A DNA stretch of 17,360 nucleotides from the IMG/VR virus record IMGVR_UViG_2645728010_000005, one strand, 5' to 3'. The position numbers and the translations under genes are program-made. Below are positions 3,258 to 17,360 of the stretch, piece after piece. The DNA comes from a virus (lineage: Duplodnaviria; Heunggongvirae; Uroviricota; Caudoviricetes). Within the stretch, counting starts at the first letter, position 1. Every line of letters starts with the position of its first letter. Under the pieces are notes generated by a model. That model was not told the DNA's origin, did not search any database, and saw only the letters and a program-made list of their open reading frames with translations.

Positions 3258-3460
3258 TGTTCATTCCACGGCCAAAAACAGAGAAAGGAAACGACAGAGG
3301 CCCAAAAGCTCGTTTTCAGCACCTGTCGTTTCCTTTCTTTTCAGGGGGTATTTTAAATAAAAACATTAAGTTACGACGAAGAAGAACGGAAATGCCTTAA
3401 ACCGGAAAATTTTCATAAATAGCGAAAACCCGCGAGGTCGCCGCCCCGTAACCTGTCGGA
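3258..3460 (-). other. cos site: cosN cohesive-end sequence GGGCGGCGACCT (complement of 3435..3446), with the cosB region between it and the Nu1 start
   Basis: The reverse complement of 3258..3446 reads GGGCGGCGACCTCGCGGGTTTTCGCTATTTATGAAAATTTTCCGG... and continues into the Nu1 ATG, as at the lambda left end. The sequence to the right of 3446 reads like the lambda right end. Confidence 0.75.
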
Positions 3461-7616: not shown

Positions 7617-8153
7617 GTTGGAGTCATTACCGGTTTCGGTTTCTCCACTACTTATGAGTATGAAGGATTCGGCGTGGGTGCAACCTATGCTAAATCAGAT
7701 CGCACTGACGGTCAGGTCGCCTATGGTAAGAGCAAATTCAATGCCTCCGGCAAAAATGCGGAAGTATGGGCTGCAGGCCTGAAATATGATGCGAACAATA
7801 TCTATCTGGCTACCACATATTCTGAAACTCAGAATATGACCGTTTTTGGTAATAACCATATTGCAAACAAAGCACAAAACTTTGAAGCAGTAGCACAATA
7901 TCAGTTTGACTTCGGTCTGCGACCATCTGTTGCTTACCTTCAGTCAAAAGGTAAAGACCTTGGTGTTCATGGTGACCGAGACTTAGTCAAGTATGTCGAT
8001 GTCGGTGCTACTTACTACTTTAATAAAAACATGTCCACTTTTGTTGATTACAAAATCAACTTAATTGACGATAGTAAGTTTACCAAAACAGCTGGTATTG
8101 ATACCGACGACATCGTCGCTGTAGGTCTGGTGTATCAGTTCTAATCTGATTAC

Positions 8154-9302: not shown

Positions 9303-9589
9303 GCCTTAATTACCCCCTCTTTCAGCCAGATAACCTGCGTTCTCGCCATACCTTCCAGCGCGCATTCTTTTGCATATCCAGCGTCAACAAAATGCGTGCG
9401 ACGGTCGATCTCGTCGTGACAGGCAGAACATGCAATGGTGGCAATCAGGTCTGGCGGTTTGATACCGGTACCGCACAATCCAGCCAGCCGGATATGTGCC
9501 AGTACAGACGTTTCAGGATTGCCATTACATACGCCAGGGATTCTTACCTGGCATTCCCGACCACGCGCTGCTTTTCTCAAATCAGCCAT
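9299..9589 (-). CDS. ybcO: YbcO-family protein (DUF1364, putative nuclease of the nin region)
   Basis: ATG 9589 with SD AAGGAGG; 96 aa [42 protein letters not shown]... The track ORF has a 13-codon upstream extension. Confidence 0.7.
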
Positions 9590-9752
9590 GATTCCTCCTT
9601 GCTGCCAGTCGCAACCATTTTTTATCAACCAGGCTGGCGGTATATCCGAGCAGTGTTGGTATTTCGGATGGTTTCAGCTCAGGCTTACGCTTACGACGAT
9701 TTGGTACTTTGTAGATGTGTCCGTTCATGACACGAATAAGCGGTGTAGCCAT
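9582..9752 (-). CDS. ninE: NinE-like small protein (56 aa)
   Basis: Below the track threshold. ATG 9752..9750 with SD AGGAGG, overlapping the ybcN stop (TAATG); [56 protein letters not shown]; stop overlaps the ybcO start. Confidence 0.6.
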   Translation of the reverse strand: MATPLIRVMNGHIYKVPNRRKRKPELKPSEIPTLLGYTASLVDKKWLRLAARRNHG

Positions 9753-10207
9753 TACGCCTCCTGCTTATCACGCAGCAGCTGGAACTCGCAGCTCTGCGGA
9801 ATAGTCAGGTGGCAGCCAATATTCATCGCCCAGGCTTCAACCTTACACAGGAAGACATACATCTCTCCGGTATCAAGGTCGGAGGTATGGCGTAACGACT
9901 GGATAGTGGTGATATCACCGGTTACGACATCAACCAGGTCTTTGGTTTCATAACCGAGATATGTGTGTTTGAGAGCATCTTTTACCCAAGCTGGAGTGGC
10001 GAACGTTTTACCCCTGCTGATGAGGTATTCACTGATTTCGCTGTACCACATGTGGCTGAGTGCATTCTGGGAAAGACTGCGTTTCTCACGCCACGGTTTA
10101 AGCACCATGCGAAAGCATTTGCCCTCCTCCAGATAAGGCTGGATCTGCCGACCGATAGCGGTGAAGTTGCCGCGATGTAATTTGATGCCGTCTTGTGAGA
10201 GGTTCAC
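9752..10207 (-). CDS. ybcN: NinB-like recombination protein (DUF1367, YbcN)
   Basis: 151 aa, GTG start preceded by GGAGGTG; contains ...[23 protein letters not shown]..., resembling the NinB family. Confidence 0.75.
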
Positions 10208-10305
10208 GCTTCACCTCCGCAGAGGTCAAACGCTAGATGCAAAGAATTGCAGGTGCATTTCTGCATCTGTGAAGGGAGAAGAGAGTTTGGATTGTATGTG
10301 CGCAT
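10204..10305 (-). CDS. Small ORF (33 aa) between ybcM and ybcN, ylcH-like
   Basis: ATG 10305, [33 protein letters not shown]; its stop overlaps the ybcN start. Coding status is uncertain. Confidence 0.3.
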
Positions 10306-10421
10306 AAACGTCCCCGTTTAGCGCAGAAGTCACCGGAGTTGTTCAGGCTCCGGTGACATAATTATGCCGTGTTGATTTCCCAAAATCAAAATCGATAGAA
10401 TTGCTCCTTCTTAAAACACTT

Positions 10422-11219
10422 TTACTCTCTGGAAGCTTTTCTTATCTCTCTTGGTGTTATATTAAAACGATTATGAAATCTTTCAGTAAAACGAGAAGGA
10501 CACTTATAACCATTTTCTCTGGCAATCTCGCTTATAGGTTTTACCGTCGTTTGTATAGCAGACAACGCATTATTTAACCTCACATCGTCCAGTATACTTT
10601 GGAAACTTACCCCCTCGCTTGCTAGACGGCGATGTAATGTAGAAACAGAAATGTAGAGATATCGAGCAACCTTGTTTGCTGTCCATTTTGTGCCGGGTTC
10701 GGATAGCAGCAGGTTATAACAACGACTTATCAATGATTGTTTACTATATGATAAAAGTAAATGATTAACATGATTCACTCCTAACGAAAGTAGAACGCCC
10801 ATTGCTAAGTGCTCCTGAATTTTAGTTGAGAAGCCTCGGGAAACAGATGTTTTTAGTTGCTCCCAACAATATATTAACTCAGGATTCTGAGGTAAAAAGA
10901 AACTTGTTTTGTTACGTATTTGATCAGTTACCGTATAAAGTTTTTGGAAACTCTCAATTAAATCAATGGGTAAGTAAAGCATTTCTGCAAGATAAAGCCC
11001 TGCTTCAGGATAATTCTCAATATAAAATTCATAACCACAAGGAAATAATATTATTTGATTATTATCAACAGTTAAAGTATGCGTCTCCCAATTGATAACT
11101 TTCTTTCCCTGACGGATACGACACAAAGCTGGCATAAGAGGCTTAACCCTATGAATCTCATGATGTTTATGCATCCGTATTTCTTCGATCTTTAAGTTAG
11201 TCTTACCTCTTGCCAGCAT
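10422..11219 (-). CDS. ybcM: AraC/XylS-family transcriptional regulator
   Basis: 265 aa; C-terminal dual-HTH AraC signature (...[42 protein letters not shown]...[21 protein letters not shown]). Confidence 0.85.
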
Positions 11220-11228
11220 ACTCTCACC

Positions 11229-11780
11229 CTACTTTATCTCATAAACTGGTGTTATCTCAGCGGTTGCGATTTTATTAGCATTAAGCATATAACCAACTAA
11301 CGCTCCGCTGGAGTTAGAATCTACAGGAATCTTTTCAGTTTTTAGAGCCCATACTTTAAACTGGTAATGATGTGGTTTATCTCCTTTAGGAGGACATGCG
11401 CCACCAAACCCAGCATAGCCAAAATCATTTCGGCCTTGAACAGCACCAGTCGGCAGTTTTGTTCCATCACGTCTCCCTGCATCAACGGGCAAATATGTTA
11501 CTGTTGCTGGAATATTAACAACAGTCCAATGCCACCAACCACTGCCTGTAGGTGCATCTGGATCATATACAGTTACGGCAAAGCTTTTGGTACCTTCAGG
11601 AACACCAGACCAGGTTAATGAGGGCGATGTATTACCACCTTCACACCCAAATCCAGAAAAGACATGAGACGTTGTAAGTTGCTCTCCTGTTTTTATTTCA
11701 TTACTAGTGACCTGAAATGCTGCAGCCTGCGCAGAAAATGTTATGAATGCCAATACAGTTGAAACGATAAGTGTTTTCAT
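11229..11780 (-). CDS. ybcL: Periplasmic PEBP/RKIP-family protein (YbhB/YbcL, UPF0098)
   Basis: 183 aa with signal peptide MKTLIVSTVLAFITFSAQAAA and PEBP motifs (DPDAP...GWWHW...HHYQFKVWAL). Confidence 0.85.
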   Translation of the reverse strand: MKTLIVSTVLAFITFSAQAAAFQVTSNEIKTGEQLTTSHVFSGFGCEGGNTSPSLTWSGVPEGTKSFAVTVYDPDAPTGSGWWHWTVVNIPATVTYLPVDAGRRDGTKLPTGAVQGRNDFGYAGFGGACPPKGDKPHHYQFKVWALKTEKIPVDSNSSGALVGYMLNANKIATAEITPVYEIK

Positions 11781-11996
11781 AAAAACCTCTTTGTTATGAC
11801 CTATCGTTATTTTATTTGATATTCCTTTATCTCATTATGCATAAAGGCGCAATGTTCATGCAAAAGCAATCACAATTGTACCCCCAACCCAATTATTTGC
11901 CACAATATACACAAAGCACATTGATACTATCTAAAAACTCTGCTTTATTATTAGTAATACCTACGAAAGTCGGTGTTATTTTTTAACCTACCATTC

Positions 11997-12046
11997 AAAA
12001 TACGTGACATACACCATTTTGCTCATAATAATTTGTCACGTATTTT
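11997..12046. repeat. 13-bp perfect inverted repeat AAAATACGTGACA (11997..12009) / TGTCACGTATTTT (12034..12046) with a 24-bp spacer
   Basis: Read directly from the sequence; lies in the ybcK-ybcL intergenic region about 200 bp below the ybcK stop. Confidence 0.65.
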
Positions 12047-12244
12047 CAGTATTTGAATCTGCGACCAAGAGTTCTCACCTAACAAATGATTAAGATTGTA
12101 TAGCTCATTTACTACCCCAATACAGCCGTACAAAACTCGCTTGTGGGAGCAAACAAAGTAATTACCCATTAAGTTTCGTTAAAGATAATTAATTCTGTCT
12201 TGCACTTTATCACCATAGCATAACTTAAAATCCGAGATCATTAT

Positions 12245-13771
12245 TTAGAAATAAATCTCACCATCAACCATATATTTGAGAGCACTTATCGCCTGCTGGG
12301 CGGATATTACTTTCATTAAAGGATAGTGTTTAAAAACAATGCCATTCATAAAATAGATATCACAGGTTTTATTATCCGTATTAATTATGATTTTTTCGAA
12401 TGTTTTATAGGCAAGTGTACGGCATAACTCTCGTCCATTTTTACTGGTTAAGTCAATAGCATAAAAATCACTGAATGAATTTACACCTTTACTCTTCAAA
12501 GTTTTCAATGATACCGAAGCCCTTCGTAATTCCTTATCTAATAGTCTTATTTTCTCTGCTATAGCGGTAACTTCAGGCGCGACAGACAATGCAACGATTA
12601 AATTATTAATTTTCATCTGAAGCTCAATAATTTTTAACTCTAAAGTTTCATTAGCATCTTTCTTGTTTTCAACTGGTTGAATTTTGCTACAATTAAAAAG
12701 CAATTCATTAATGATATTATAATCAACCAAATCTCTTTTTATTGATGGCCTGTCACATCGATGTAATCTTCTCATCGGACAAACATAATAGCCATGCAAA
12801 CTTCCAGATACCGCATGAACAATCATGGTATTACCACAAGCCTCACACTTCATAACTGTTCGAAGTAGATTTATTAGCATAGGATTCTTGCTACTATTGC
12901 TAATACCAAAAGGTGCCAACCGAATTTCCTGTACAGCGTAAAACAAATCATCTGATATGACTCTGGGATAATAGCCAGCGATTTCACTTATCCCTTTCCC
13001 TCTTGCACGATATGAAGGTACGCATATACCTATCAGAGCTTTATTCGCTAATAATTTTTCAATTACAGAAGGTCCCCATGCACTTTCTTTTCCTGAGAAA
13101 TTCTTTACAGCATGATCATTTAAATACTTGGCTATTGCATTCAATGAGCGCCTTTCCATCCTGAGTTTAAAAATTAGCTCAATAGTTTTCACCCTGTCGG
13201 GGTCTGGAACAAAAGCCGTTCTTTTGTCATCTAAGGAGAGCCATCTCGGACAAGACGCCGTCATAATCGTACCTGATTCCAGTGCATCCTGCCGTTTTTT
13301 CTTCCATGATAATTTAACCCGACTTGACTTTATCTCGCTTTCTTCATTTGCCCTTTGTGCTATAAGTATGGCTTTTATTAATGAATATGGCTCATTCAAA
13401 GAGTCAATATTATAGACTGTATTGTCGCAAAGAGTTATAACATCAATACCGTGATTCAAAATCAATTTCAGACGTTCAATCGCTTCACCGACTTTTTCTC
13501 TTGAAAGTCTGTCCAGACTTTCAACTAACAATGTAGTTCCTGGCAATATATAACCATGCTCTATAGCATCTAAAAATTCCGAAAAAGCTCCTGATTGTGC
13601 ATGCTTTCCTTTGAATGCACTTAATCCTAAATCTTCATATGTTATGGTATCAAGATAATAATCACTATTTACCTTTAACCATTCAGCAATAAGTCTTCTC
13701 TGTCGGTTTAATGAGTCGCCAGACATCTGACCTGGTGATGAAAATCGCATATATGCTATGGCTTTTTTCAT
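12245..13771 (-). CDS. ybcK: Large serine recombinase (resolvase-like catalytic domain, recombinase domain, Cys-rich zinc-ribbon region)
   Basis: 508 aa; N-terminus MKKAIAYMRFSSPGQ carries the catalytic-serine motif of serine recombinases; Cys cluster CEACGNTMIVH...YYVCPMRRLHRCDRP; coiled-coil-like C-terminal region. Confidence 0.85.
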   Translation of the reverse strand: MKKAIAYMRFSSPGQMSGDSLNRQRRLIAEWLKVNSDYYLDTITYEDLGLSAFKGKHAQSGAFSEFLDAIEHGYILPGTTLLVESLDRLSREKVGEAIERLKLILNHGIDVITLCDNTVYNIDSLNEPYSLIKAILIAQRANEESEIKSSRVKLSWKKKRQDALESGTIMTASCPRWLSLDDKRTAFVPDPDRVKTIELIFKLRMERRSLNAIAKYLNDHAVKNFSGKESAWGPSVIEKLLANKALIGICVPSYRARGKGISEIAGYYPRVISDDLFYAVQEIRLAPFGISNSSKNPMLINLLRTVMKCEACGNTMIVHAVSGSLHGYYVCPMRRLHRCDRPSIKRDLVDYNIINELLFNCSKIQPVENKKDANETLELKIIELQMKINNLIVALSVAPEVTAIAEKIRLLDKELRRASVSLKTLKSKGVNSFSDFYAIDLTSKNGRELCRTLAYKTFEKIIINTDNKTCDIYFMNGIVFKHYPLMKVISAQQAISALKYMVDGEIYF

Positions 13772-13950
13772 GGTGACACCTGCTAACGTATGCTTTTATA
13801 AACCTTAGTGGTGGGATATAATTTTTGTTTAATTTTTATTTAAAAAGACAATTAAGGTCACATTATCTTGAATATACAACAATAATCGTATTGCAATTTT
13901 CTTACGCCATAATCTTGAAAGCACAAAAGAATACATAAAAAATAAAGACA

Positions 13951-13996
13951 TTAACAAAAAGCATAAAACGAGGCTCATATAAATATAAGAGCCTCC
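13951..13996 (-). terminator. Putative intrinsic terminator downstream of emrE
   Basis: Stem GAGGCTC/GAGCCTC (13970..13976 / 13989..13995) with a 12-nt AT loop, followed on the minus strand by a T-rich run (GTTTTATGCTTTTTG). Confidence 0.35.
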
Positions 13997-14025
13997 ATAT
14001 TTTAGTCGTTTAGAAACAAATTATT

Positions 14026-14358
14026 TTAATGTGGTGTGCTTCGTGACAATAAATTAATAACCAACACACCGGCACAAATCAACATCATGCCTATAATGGC
14101 TGGCAGGTCCAGCCGTTGGCCGAAAAATCCCCATAACAGTAAGCTAATCAGGACAATACCGACTCCTGACCAGATACCATAAGCAATCCCTGTAGGAATA
14201 TAAGCCAGCGTCTGAGCTAATAACCAGAATGATGCACAATAACAAATAATTGTACCAACAGATGGCCATAACCGTGTAAAACCTTCTGAAAACTTCATTA
14301 AGGTTGTACCAATGACCTCTGCAAGTATTGCACCACCAAGATAAATATAAGGGTTCAT
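14026..14358 (-). CDS. emrE: EmrE small multidrug resistance (SMR) efflux transporter
   Basis: ATG 14358; 110 aa MNPYIYLGGAILAEVIGTTLMKFSEGFTRLWPSVGTIICYCASFWLLAQTLAYIPTGIAYGIWSGVGIVLISLL..., four TM helices with the conserved membrane Glu14. The track ORF has an 18-codon upstream extension. Confidence 0.95.
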   Translation of the reverse strand: MNPYIYLGGAILAEVIGTTLMKFSEGFTRLWPSVGTIICYCASFWLLAQTLAYIPTGIAYGIWSGVGIVLISLLLWGFFGQRLDLPAIIGMMLICAGVLVINLLSRSTPH

Positions 14359-14697
14359 AGCATATTCTTTCCTGTTCAAACTGGAGAGAATTGTACTACA
14401 GTTTGAACTCAACTCACCTGTTTCATCATTGTGTTCCCATTGATGTTCTTTTATATACCCTCAGTACCCGTTTCATCGCGGCACTCTGGCGACACTCCTT
14501 AAAAATCAGATTCGTGCTCACCTTTCCTTCCCGTTCTTCTCTGGTAGCGAACCGGTAATACACCGTTCGCCAGACCTTACCATCAACGACCAGGATTCCT
14601 GCCCGCGCCATTTTAGCCGCAGCCTGATTTATGCTGGTTACGGTTGCACCTGTTGGCCCGCATGTTCTGGTACAAGTTGGTAACCAACCAGTAAGCA

Positions 14698-15063
14698 ATG
14701 GGATATGCCTCTGGTTATGTCTGGTTGAATCCACCATACAGCAATATTTCCCCTTTTGTGAAAAAGGCAGCCACTGAAAACAAATTCAGCAGTGTGGGAT
14801 GTGTAATGTTATTACCTGCTGACACATCTGTCGGATGGTTTCATGAAGCGATACAAACCGCCAGTGAGGTCAGATTCATCACGGCAGGACGACTGGCATT
14901 TATTAACCCACTCACCGGGAAACACGTCAGTGGAAATAATAAAGGCTCGATGCTCATTATCTGGCACCCATACCCCCGTACACACTGCCACTTTACGACC
15001 GTTGATCGTGGAGAGTTGATGGCGTTCGGCTCAAGGATTCTTGCCCGTCGGGAGGCTGCATGA
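14698..15063 (+). pseudogene. Phage Dam-type N6-adenine DNA methyltransferase, probably a 5'-truncated remnant
   Basis: 121 aa MGYASGYVWLNPPYSNISPFVKKAATENKFSSVGCVMLLPADTSVGWFHEA...; the NPPY catalytic motif sits at residues 11..14 and an in-frame TAA lies 4 nt upstream of the ATG. In the phage Dam family as I recall it, about 60 aa precede this motif. Confidence 0.5.
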
Positions 15064-15139
15064 CAACCACGGAATGCATTTTTCTGGCAGCGGGCTTCAT
15101 ATTCTGTGTGCTTATGCTTGCCGACATGGGACTTGTTCA

Positions 15140-15355
15140 ATGACACCTCAGCAGGAAAACGCCCTTCGCAGCATAGCCCGTCAGGCTAATTCTGAAATCA
15201 AAAAAGCCAGACAGCAGTTTCCGGATAAAAACGTCGATGACATTTGCCGTAGCGTACTGAAGAAGCACCGCGAAACGGTAACGCTGATGGGATTCACACC
15301 GACTCATTTAAGCCTGGCGATCGGCATGTTAAACGGCGTCTTTAAGGAGCGATGA
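15140..15355 (+). CDS. Hypothetical small early-left phage protein (71 aa from ATG 15140; the track ORF starts at 15041)
   Basis: Open frame MTPQQENALRSIARQANSEIKKARQQFPDKNVDDICRSVLKKHRETVTLMGFTPTHLSLAIGMLNGVFKER; start site uncertain; no family recognised. Confidence 0.3.
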   Translation: MTPQQENALRSIARQANSEIKKARQQFPDKNVDDICRSVLKKHRETVTLMGFTPTHLSLAIGMLNGVFKER

Positions 15356-15453
15356 ACATGAAAAGCAAAATCATCAGGGAGCTACAGGCTCCTTTTTTAT
15401 TATTCGCATTCACCCTCAAGCGTATTAACCAACAATTCAGGGATTAATGGAAG

Positions 15454-15672
15454 ATGGCAGACATCATTGATTCAGCATCAGAAATCGAAGAATTACAGCG
15501 CAATACAGCAATAAAAATGCGTCGTCTGAACCACCAGGTTATATCTGCCACTCATTGTTGTGAGTGTGGCGATCCCATAGATGAACGAAGACGCCTGGCC
15601 GTTCAGGGTTGTCGGACTTGTGCAAGCTGCCAGGAGGAGATCGAACTTAAGAACAAACAATGGGGATTGTGA
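15454..15672 (+). CDS. TraR/DksA-family C4 zinc-finger protein (phage-encoded)
   Basis: 72 aa with two CxxC pairs (HCCECGDPID...GCRTCASCQ) at TraR-like spacing. Confidence 0.6.
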   Translation: MADIIDSASEIEELQRNTAIKMRRLNHQVISATHCCECGDPIDERRRLAVQGCRTCASCQEEIELKNKQWGL

Positions 15673-15998: not shown

Positions 15999-16341
15999 GG
16001 CCTGTCAGTTTCTTAAGATATCCAGACCAACCGCCACCAACTGGATACGAACAGGCCGCCTACAGGCAACACGTAAAGATCCAACCAAGCCAAAATCTCC
16101 TTACCTCACAACACGGCAAGCCTGCATTGCGGCGCTTCAGTCTCCGCTGCATACTGTCCAGGTGAGCGCGGGTGATGGCATAACAGAGGAAAGAAAATGT
16201 CACTCTTCCGCAGAAATGAAATATGGTATGCCTCGTATTCGCTCCCGGGCGGGAAACGAATTAAGGAATCTCTTGGCACAAAGGACAAGCGGCAAGCTCA
16301 GGAGTTGCACGACAAGCGAAAAGCAGAACTCTGGCGAGTAG
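15970..16341 (+). CDS. xis: Excisionase / AlpA-like HTH DNA-binding protein (extent uncertain; overlaps the integrase start by ~145 nt)
   Basis: ATG 15970 with SD GAGGT; N-terminus [36 protein letters not shown] is a typical AlpA/Xis-type HTH; the C-terminal ~45 codons overlap int in another frame. Confidence 0.5.
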
Positions 16342-17360
16342 AAAAGCTAGGGGATTTACCTGATGTCACTTTTGAAGAGGCCTGCCTAAGATGGCTTGAG
16401 GAAAAAGCTGATAAAAAATCTCTCGATTCAGATAAAAGCCGGATTGAGTTCTGGCTTGAACATTTTGAGGGTATAAGGCTTAAAGATATCTCGGAGGCAA
16501 AGATTTACTCTGCTGTAAGCAGAATGCATAACAGAAAGACGAAAGAAATATGGAAACAGAAAGTTCAGGCCGCCATCAGGAAAGGTAAAGAACTGCCTGT
16601 TTATGAACCAAAGCCAGTACCAACTCAGACAAAGGCAAAGCATCTTGCCATGATAAAGGCCATTCTCCGTGCTGCAGAACGCGACTGGAAGTGGCTGGAA
16701 AAAGCGCCTGTCATCAAGATACCAGCGGTCAGAAACAAGCGAGTCAGATGGCTGGAAAAGGAGGAAGCAAAACGCCTTATTGATGAGTGCCCCGAACCAC
16801 TGAAATCTGTCGTCAAGTTTGCGCTGGCAACTGGTCTGAGAAAGTCGAACATCATAAATCTGGAATGGCAACAAATCGACATGCAGCGACGAGTTGCCTG
16901 GGTGAATCCAGAAGAGAGCAAATCAAACCGCGCCATTGGTGTGGCGCTGAACGATACCGCCTGTAAAGTGTTGCGTGATCAAATAGGCAAGCATCACAAA
17001 TGGGTGTTTGTACATACCAAGGCGGCTAAGCGAGCAGATGGAACATCAACGCCTGCGGTCAGGAAGATGCGCATCGACAGCAAGACATCATGGCTATCAG
17101 CTTGTCGTCGTGCAGGAATTGAAGATTTCCGTTTCCATGACCTCAGACACACCTGGGCAAGCTGGCTGATTCAGTCAGGCGTCCCATTATCAGTGCTTCA
17201 GGAAATGGGCGGATGGGAGTCCATAGAAATGGTTCGTAGGTATGCTCACCTTGCGCCTAATCATTTGACAGAGCATGCGAGGAAAATAGACGACATTTTT
17301 GGTGATAATGTCCCAAATATGTCCCACTCTGGAATTATGGAGGATATAAAGAAGGCGTAA
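16197..17360 (+). CDS. intD: Tyrosine-type phage integrase (DLP12 IntD-like)
   Basis: 387 aa [46 protein letters not shown]...; C-terminal catalytic box ...[42 protein letters not shown] (conserved H-x-x-R and Tyr). Stop codon is the last 3 nt of the window. Confidence 0.95.

Follow-up and report, generated by a model that had tools for sequence, protein, structure and literature searches.

Among the genetic elements served by serine integrases, some split a host gene upon insertion, as do A118 in comK, skin in sigK and SPbeta in spsM, and others occupy the 3' end of a gene. The latter arrangement is represented by SCCmec, the CcrAB serine-recombinase element at the 3' end of orfX, which together with its cargo amounts to tens of kilobases (kb) and whose excision has been demonstrated. 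Here we analyse the recombinase gene ybcK on a stretch of 17,360 nucleotides from a Caudoviricetes virus (IMG/VR record IMGVR_UViG_2645728010_000005), hereafter referred to as the window, which constitutes a DLP12-type lambdoid prophage of Escherichia coli in a map direction opposite to that of K-12. The gene, an open reading frame (ORF) of 508 codons plus stop, occupies positions 12245 to 13771 on the minus strand, while the corresponding plus-strand frame is stop-rich. In our judgement the chances are about even that YbcK is the intact and selected integrase-type recombinase of a small passenger module fixed at the 3' end of emrE and stranded in this prophage. This module would consist of a leader with ylcJ followed by ybcK and is situated, in lambdoid phages of the DLP12/Perceval type, immediately 3' of emrE within the ren-nin accessory region.

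The initial annotation, made from the letters of the window alone, had proposed a large serine recombinase with catalytic serine and zinc ribbon, and translation, Pfam, PHROGs, NCBIfam and an AlphaFold2 model bear this out: the 508-amino-acid (508-aa) protein is real and encoded by the minus strand. At the DNA level ybcK shares 100% identity with its counterparts in BL21 and E. coli C and 99.9% with that in K-12; it is an already annotated, uncharacterised gene of E. coli (K-12, B, C). The domain search with hidden Markov models, which had been suggested as a check, recovers Resolvase (PF00239, residues 4-161, E=5.5e-19), Recombinase (PF07508, residues 191-284, E=2.3e-14) and Zn_ribbon_recom (PF13408, residues 302-357, E=7.9e-8), and the top PHROGs match is phrog_95 'integrase' (E=4e-120). 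From the N-terminus onwards the protein comprises a catalytic domain, a long E-helix, a recombinase domain, a zinc ribbon, a coiled-coil and a C-terminal beta domain. Within an alignment of 23 family members, whose identity goes down to 28%, R9, S11, D87, R88, R91, R140 and E143/E144 are invariant, including those of the catalytic motifs Y7-x-R9-x-S11 and S85-L-D87-R88-L-S-R91. Hence, the catalytic serine and the arginines R9, R88, R91 and R140, whose loss had been envisaged as a counter-argument, are kept, and so are the zinc cysteines C309, C312, C331 and C339 across the same 23 sequences.

The profile built from this alignment matches the structure of the A118 integrase (4kis; E=2.4e-15, residues 190-473) in an alignment which spans the coiled-coil region of A118, and it also matches the catalytic domain of the TP901-1 integrase (3bvp). 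The AlphaFold2 model, with a mean predicted local distance difference test (pLDDT) score of 80, displays the domain order expected for serine integrases. It places helices 368-397 and 401-428 between the zinc-ribbon strands and the C-terminal strands; a coiled-coil embedded in the zinc-ribbon domain is predicted. The top Foldseek matches of the model are full-length complexes of serine integrases with their attachment (att) sites (9dxd, 9tep, 9iu2), and sequence-profile and fold matches to the A118, PhiC31 and Bxb1 integrases extend over the whole length of the protein. The sole NCBIfam match is XisF (NF041201), the excisase of the fdxN element, which aligns to residues 61-410; since its score of 46.9 bits stays far below the cut-off of 375 bits, YbcK is not an XisF equivalog. 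As judged from its sequence, YbcK is a bona fide large serine recombinase of the integrase type in which all catalytic residues are present. A full-text literature search yielded no recombination substrate assigned to YbcK, as the initial annotation had supposed. The 5' untranslated region (UTR) of ybcK harbours a Rho/NusG-dependent terminator which keeps its expression low (PMC4150792).

Of 5426 complete E. coli genomes, 1424 carry the gene, and in 1398 of these 1424 it retains full length; a divergent E. coli match (H70) turned out to be a truncated ybcK only. It is also found in 12 isolated lambdoid phages. Among three E. coli allele lineages the ratio of non-synonymous to synonymous substitutions (dN/dS) amounts to 0.06-0.10 at a dS of 0.12-0.17. 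ybcK is under strong purifying selection, and the protein has therefore been kept functional. Perceval (strain LF82), the phage which we inspected in full, is complete and possesses a tyrosine integrase and an excisionase of its own. Likewise, the window carries the tyrosine integrase which the initial annotation had noted at the other end of the prophage, namely intD, on the plus strand from position 16197 to 17360, where the window breaks off inside the gene; the matching genome record shows a tRNA-Arg gene adjoining it. As the host phage integrates by means of its own tyrosine integrase, YbcK is not the integrase of the phage.

The segment specific to ybcK reaches from about 11936/12204 to 14017. 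Its left junction, CATTAAAATAATTT, is situated at 14018 to 14031 on the minus strand, where homology to the ybcK-less emrE copy of the fliE locus stops (14018/14019), and overlaps the last codon and the stop codon of emrE. The gene emrE itself (14026 to 14358, minus strand; phrog_1395), coding for a small multidrug resistance (SMR) efflux pump, invariably precedes ybcK and represents the candidate target gene: the order ren-emrE-ybcK is observed in all viral contigs and in all 12 isolated phages that bear emrE. The junction core lies 250-263 bp upstream of ybcK in 78 of the 78 viral contigs which include the upstream flank. Between the emrE stop and the ybcK start (13772 to 14017, minus strand), as judged from the sequence and the annotation of the matching record, there extends a leader made up of a stem-loop (13970-13994), the small ORF ylcJ of 49 aa (13829-13978, minus strand) and the ybcK 5' UTR. 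This leader, including ylcJ, accompanies ybcK at every locus seen. At some loci ylcJ is shorter or frameshifted, so it is probably dispensable; for the same reason this sole co-travelling ORF is a poor candidate for a directionality factor. Downstream of the ybcK stop about 100 bp (12145 to 12244, minus strand) are common to other ybcK loci with decaying identity, BLAST-level homology ending at 12204, and the whole of 12204-14654 is conserved at 96-97% in other prophages. The adjoining 11936 to 12144, to which no strand was assigned, is a spacer specific to the DLP12 type which leads from the ybcK module to ybcL.

The absence of structural polymorphism around the block, named beforehand as an argument against a mobile role, is not what we find, as the ybcK segment is present or absent and the accompanying cargo varies. 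Two kinds of locus lack the segment precisely at the emrE stop codon. A decayed non-phage remnant near fliE, in which emrE, ybcL and ybcM occur without ybcK, was retrieved from about 2600 genomes by a strict junction query. Here window positions 11936-14018, and with them the DLP12-type spacer, are missing, four unaligned bases remaining between the flanking homology blocks. In its E. coli Nissle-type form (L005) the remnant occupies the yedK-fliE interval in the order porin-ybcM-ybcL-emrE and is homologous to window positions 10205-11935 and 14019-14434, with 90-93% identity to DLP12. It is also devoid of ybcN-quuD and ren, and some copies show an integrase fragment upstream. No ybcK segment inserted in the chromosomal emrE near fliE was seen, nor any empty site of high identity for the DLP12 type, the only empty ones being these fliE-locus copies, which are diverged by 8-10%.

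The second kind of locus is provided by Perceval-type phages, in which a 2073-bp ylcJ-ybcK segment is enclosed by perfect 15-bp repeats, CATTAAAAATAATTT. This repeat core corresponds to the left junction CATTAAAATAATTT of the window and is part of a 38-bp repeat of 84% identity, whose score is reached by none of 200 shuffles. A synthetic empty-site query was made from the Perceval-type sequence by deleting the segment between the repeats. The exact single-copy empty junction (...CACCACATTAAAAATAATTTCTTTTGAATCG) exists in two genomes, compared with 172 filled ones; in one of the two, F467, the order is ren-emrE-hydrolase-ybcN. This junction, taken as candidate attB, has 14 of 24 symmetric positions and thus a marginal dyad (p ~0.06). 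Two origins considered for the right-hand repeat were discarded. It does not represent the natural stop of P22AR_C as it is in the wrong frame, and an emrE allele ending in SRPH*, from which it might derive as the 3' end, occurs in none of the 5426 genomes, both empty sites ending canonically.

Relatives of YbcK with 505-540 aa and 39-61% identity are spread through the Enterobacterales. Several are located at the extreme end of a prophage, where the gene for tail-fibre assembly immediately precedes them; in one case the 3' end of the tmRNA gene is 540 bp away, and some are solitary on plasmids of Erwiniaceae. Pairwise comparison of 20-kb loci reveals that the recombinase gene with 4-425 bp of flank is often the sole DNA in common, at 83-94% identity and with sharp edges, no matter whether prophages of two types or a prophage and a plasmid are compared. 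In Serratia fonticola, Leclercia tamurae and Rahnella inusitata (L030, L031 and L032) a relative of 540 aa and 39% identity to YbcK is found at the edge of islands of 7-10 kb. They split hofB, the gene of a type IV pilus ATPase, at one codon position within the motif GHLVL|STLHTN (intact site ...CATCTGGTGCTGTCGACACTGCAT...); apart from genes with no assigned function, they encode a Shedu SduA_C nuclease and a small resolvase. Between the genera this recombinase is 91-93% identical while the neighbouring core genes reach 67-81%, so that the three genera seem to share a defence island which inserts at a defined target. Another lambdoid nin region, in which a SIR2 gene is also present (L189), has a 59%-identical relative on one segment with KGG and DinI genes. 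A 229-bp duplication (7623-7851 and 10609-10831, 82.5% identity), which comprises the first 59 codons of the adjacent DUF1367 gene, flanks this segment and leaves one truncated and one full copy. By their locations, the relatives behave as element integrases, and nothing else lends stronger indirect support to such a role of YbcK.

The initial annotation had suggested that YbcK serves a nested element or an inversion switch. For the nested element there is partial support, as the segment is missing exactly at the emrE stop codon in the two kinds of locus and the relatives are clearly integrases of discrete elements. We infer that YbcK itself created the insertion of its segment, or that it can reverse it. 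According to the chemistry of the family, YbcK dimers would bind two short sites through their recombinase and zinc-ribbon domains, Ser11 would cut four strands at a central dinucleotide, and the strands would be rejoined after rotation of the subunits, with the coiled-coil setting directionality. By nature YbcK would act on the two junctions which delimit its own module, and of these the left one is situated at the emrE stop (14018-14031). Since the right-hand partner site is no longer recognisable in the window, the DLP12 copy is most likely stranded.

A number of observations weigh against this reading. The downstream region of the window, including the spacer 11936-12144, is significantly similar neither to the left junction nor to the right junction of Perceval: among 500 shuffles, 153 and 383, respectively, attain the observed score. 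A degenerate right att site near 12046-11975 (GTCACG...TTTTGAAT...TAGGTTA and TTAAAAAATAA) was rejected as its alignment scores were no better than those of shuffles. The excision junction expected for an attP circle or a tandem (CACGCCCCCATTAAAAATAATTTATTTTTAAACGAC) is absent from the 5426 E. coli genomes, from IMG/VR and from the JGI metagenomes; accordingly, the search for inversion or excision polymorphisms proposed in the initial annotation brought to light presence and absence of the segment, while excision junctions and inversions were not found. For the right junction of Perceval a single context was found, identical in 20 of 20 occurrences, and it therefore reflects one event rather than repeated mobility. 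The flanks of the F467 prophage, the one of the two empty sites which was aligned, differ by 4-5% from those of filled prophages, which makes the polymorphism an old one. Moreover, the element-side arm of the Perceval right junction continues into a frameshifted remnant of P22AR_C, a gene which is intact elsewhere, and the Perceval pattern could equally stem from one illegitimate recombination in which a phage with ybcK and a phage with emrE and the hydrolase took part. Against such an exchange stands that the arm matches no emrE 3' end as a simple copy in any of the 5426 genomes. The reconstructed attP displays zero dyad symmetry (p ~0.78), and the ends of the unit bear no terminal inverted repeat. 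Among 28 homologous loci only Perceval has significant direct flanking repeats, a further locus (L021) being marginal (26 bp, p ~0.1). Finally, ybcK was never encountered away from emrE in viral contigs or isolated phages.

Several of these observations would also be explained if YbcK were a domesticated accessory gene, a moron, whose job is other than moving its own module, be it a second integration route of the phage, recombination elsewhere, acting on the host or on competing elements, or a role outside recombination, and which spreads solely by ordinary homologous recombination between phages. We regard this explanation as rather unlikely. It would account for the constant position and orientation in the early-right region, for the strong purifying selection together with retention in 12 of the 12 isolated phages carrying emrE, and for the lack of any sign of repeated transposition in E. 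coli. In addition, divergence inside ybcK is mosaic, as homologous exchange would give, and in Pantoea a lambdoid prophage endowed with a tyrosine integrase likewise has a 42%-identical relative in its nin region. In BL21(DE3), tolerance to sabinene rises upon overexpression of ybcK and drops upon its deletion (PMC7181518), yet this phenotype is without a mechanistic link to recombination. As to a job of a different kind, no candidate site elsewhere was identified. The PADLOC defence models match none of YbcK, YlcJ, EmrE, YbcL and YbcM, and a defence function of YbcK was consequently dropped. The relatives located at element edges, splitting a host gene or forming the sole DNA common to unrelated contexts are better accommodated by self-mobilisation than by a function beneficial to the host. 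We consider it quite improbable that ybcK is what survives, as its integrase, of a formerly larger element or phage at the emrE 3' end whose far att site has been lost, most of whose genes disappeared by deletion and cargo replacement and whose relic remains intact through youth or through hitchhiking on active phages. Such a history would suit the relatives at extreme prophage ends, among them that next to the tmRNA gene, those at the edges of 7-10 kb islands, and also the patchwork of deletions and replacements to the right of ybcK, where P22AR_C variants and an insertion sequence (IS) occur. However, a dN/dS of 0.06-0.10 at a dS of up to 0.17 speaks for long-term selection of the protein instead of neutral survival, and no ancestral larger form was found among 80 viral contigs or the 1424 genomes.

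There is hardly any prospect of YbcK driving an inversion switch which flips adjacent cargo or a promoter, and this part of the initial suggestion finds no support. Serine recombinases do include invertases, and the alpha/beta-hydrolase cargo is encoded on the strand opposite to ybcK. Nevertheless, no inverted repeats beyond short chance-level matches bracket any part of the region 9500-15500, gene order and orientation are constant in 80 of 80 viral contigs, each type of cargo having one fixed orientation, and junction queries gave single-piece matches in 674 and 172 complete genomes. An inversion was found in no genome examined. The architecture of YbcK, moreover, is that of a large integrase and not of a small invertase with a C-terminal helix-turn-helix (HTH).

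Returning to YbcK as the recombinase of its own passenger module, a more far-reaching version, which is possible though doubtful, is that YbcK-family units are minimal single-gene integrative elements of about 1.7-2.1 kb, a kind of 'insertion sequences' of serine-integrase type with the emrE 3' end as their E. coli target, which parasitise accessory slots of temperate phages and plasmids across the Enterobacterales. Such units could take up cargo and grow into small defence islands, those at hofB being an example, and would, if this holds true, amount to an unrecognised layer of mobility nested inside lambdoid phages. The matter is of some consequence as ybcK is carried by about a quarter of the complete E. 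coli genomes as well as by active gut phages such as Perceval. If YbcK is active on a defined target of 40-50 bp, it would offer a Gram-negative, E. coli-native serine integrase for genome engineering. Its activity would further account for part of the mosaicism of the ren-nin moron hotspot, which includes the efflux pump and defence genes, and would mean that elements nested in prophages can move on their own. Should YbcK be no more than a moron or a stranded relic, ordinary annotation is what remains. The hofB-splitting islands among the relatives represent a ready positive control.

With regard to the surroundings, positions 9501-14654 and 14653-15500 of the window match E. coli C at 100% identity. 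Read along the minus strand, which is the coding one, the genes follow each other as ren, emrE, ylcJ, ybcK, ybcL, ybcM, a 33-codon ORF and ybcN, and about 10300-14400 forms an island of low GC content (0.31-0.45 versus about 0.5 in the flanks). The initial annotation had bounded a single block at about 10400 to 14400. Polymorphism is indeed found there, but it does not concern one block, since the part from 10391 to 12203 is a generic cargo slot whose content differs among ybcK-less phages as well. This slot, the first layer of polymorphism between 10391 and 12204, was delimited by comparison of prophages; in the window it extends from 10391 to 11935 on the minus strand and holds ybcM (10422-11219, minus strand) and ybcL (11229-11780, minus strand). 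Elsewhere it contains a P22AR_C protein and BstA, an alpha/beta hydrolase, proteins of 83, 118, 168 or 260 aa with no assigned function, or nothing. As the boundary at 10391 is also present in phages without emrE and ybcK, the slot is a general moron hotspot and not specific to ybcK. Directly before the boundary at 10390/10391 there is a hairpin (10372-10389; TTGATTT CCCA AAATCAA). Its stem is kept by paired changes in three other prophages, although their loops are different; the hairpin may serve the nin region as a conserved terminator or as a mark of module boundaries.

To the right of ybcK the loci form a patchwork of deletion and replacement in which P22AR_C is full length, truncated or absent and an IS is inserted at some loci. 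At most non-DLP12 loci (L003, L126, L152, L161, L166 and L167) an ORF of 105-109 aa for P22AR_C, an antirepressor C-terminal domain, lies some 115 bp past ybcK. Next to it comes a single variable gene coding either for BstA, an abortive-infection protein matched by PADLOC, or for one of the proteins of 83, 118, 168 or 260 aa, which have no Pfam or PADLOC match; this position looks like a one-gene defence or moron slot. Between ybcK and ybcL the window features a perfect 13-bp inverted repeat, AAAATACGTGACA / TGTCACGTATTTT, at 11997-12009 and 12034-12046 with a 24-bp spacer. It is confined to the DLP12-type arrangement, has no link to the ybcK junctions and could be an operator or a bidirectional terminator.

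Some further observations concern the prophage as a whole. Compared with the otherwise identical E. coli C record and with other prophages, the window lacks 272 bp at 14653-14654, in the region of ren and the replication protein P. The P and adenine-methyltransferase genes beside this position are annotated as fragments, which is consistent with a defective prophage. The hexamer TGTCAC/GTGACA is present in 18 copies where 8.2 are expected, a number reached by none of 200 shuffles. As a motif marking module boundaries it was dropped, the copies being scattered throughout the prophage without any clustering at the ybcK island. Near the gene of the terminase small subunit, a 26-bp inverted repeat with a 5-bp spacer and 85% complementarity (3282-3338) is probably part of the cos region because the same structure is found at the left genome end of Perceval (109-165).

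As regards known systems, YbcK shares with the small serine invertases of cryptic prophages (Pin, Gin and Hin) the catalytic domain (phrog_125, E=2e-21, residues 1-258) and the prophage setting; in contrast to these proteins of about 190 aa with their C-terminal HTH, however, it comprises 508 aa and has no HTH_7, no inverted sites and no invertible segment. The large serine integrases of phages and elements (A118/LI, PhiC31, Bxb1, TP901-1) have the same domain order and the same Ser/Arg catalytic set, while in fold alignments YbcK is just 14-20% identical to them. Unlike their genes, ybcK is not placed beside a phage attachment site, and its host phage relies on a tyrosine integrase and excisionase (Int/Xis); analysis of flanks and junctions identified neither an attP/attB pair of the usual dyad symmetry nor a directionality factor for YbcK. 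With CcrAB and SCCmec the ybcK segment of Perceval-type phages has in common the position at the 3' end of a conserved gene and the short direct repeats which include the gene end, but it measures 2.07 kb, shows one junction type and has given no detectable excision product. From the gene-splitting elements YbcK differs in that it leaves emrE intact. Its 39%-identical relatives split hofB in the same manner as those elements split their target genes, with the recombinase at the edge of an island which carries defence genes in place of a phage.

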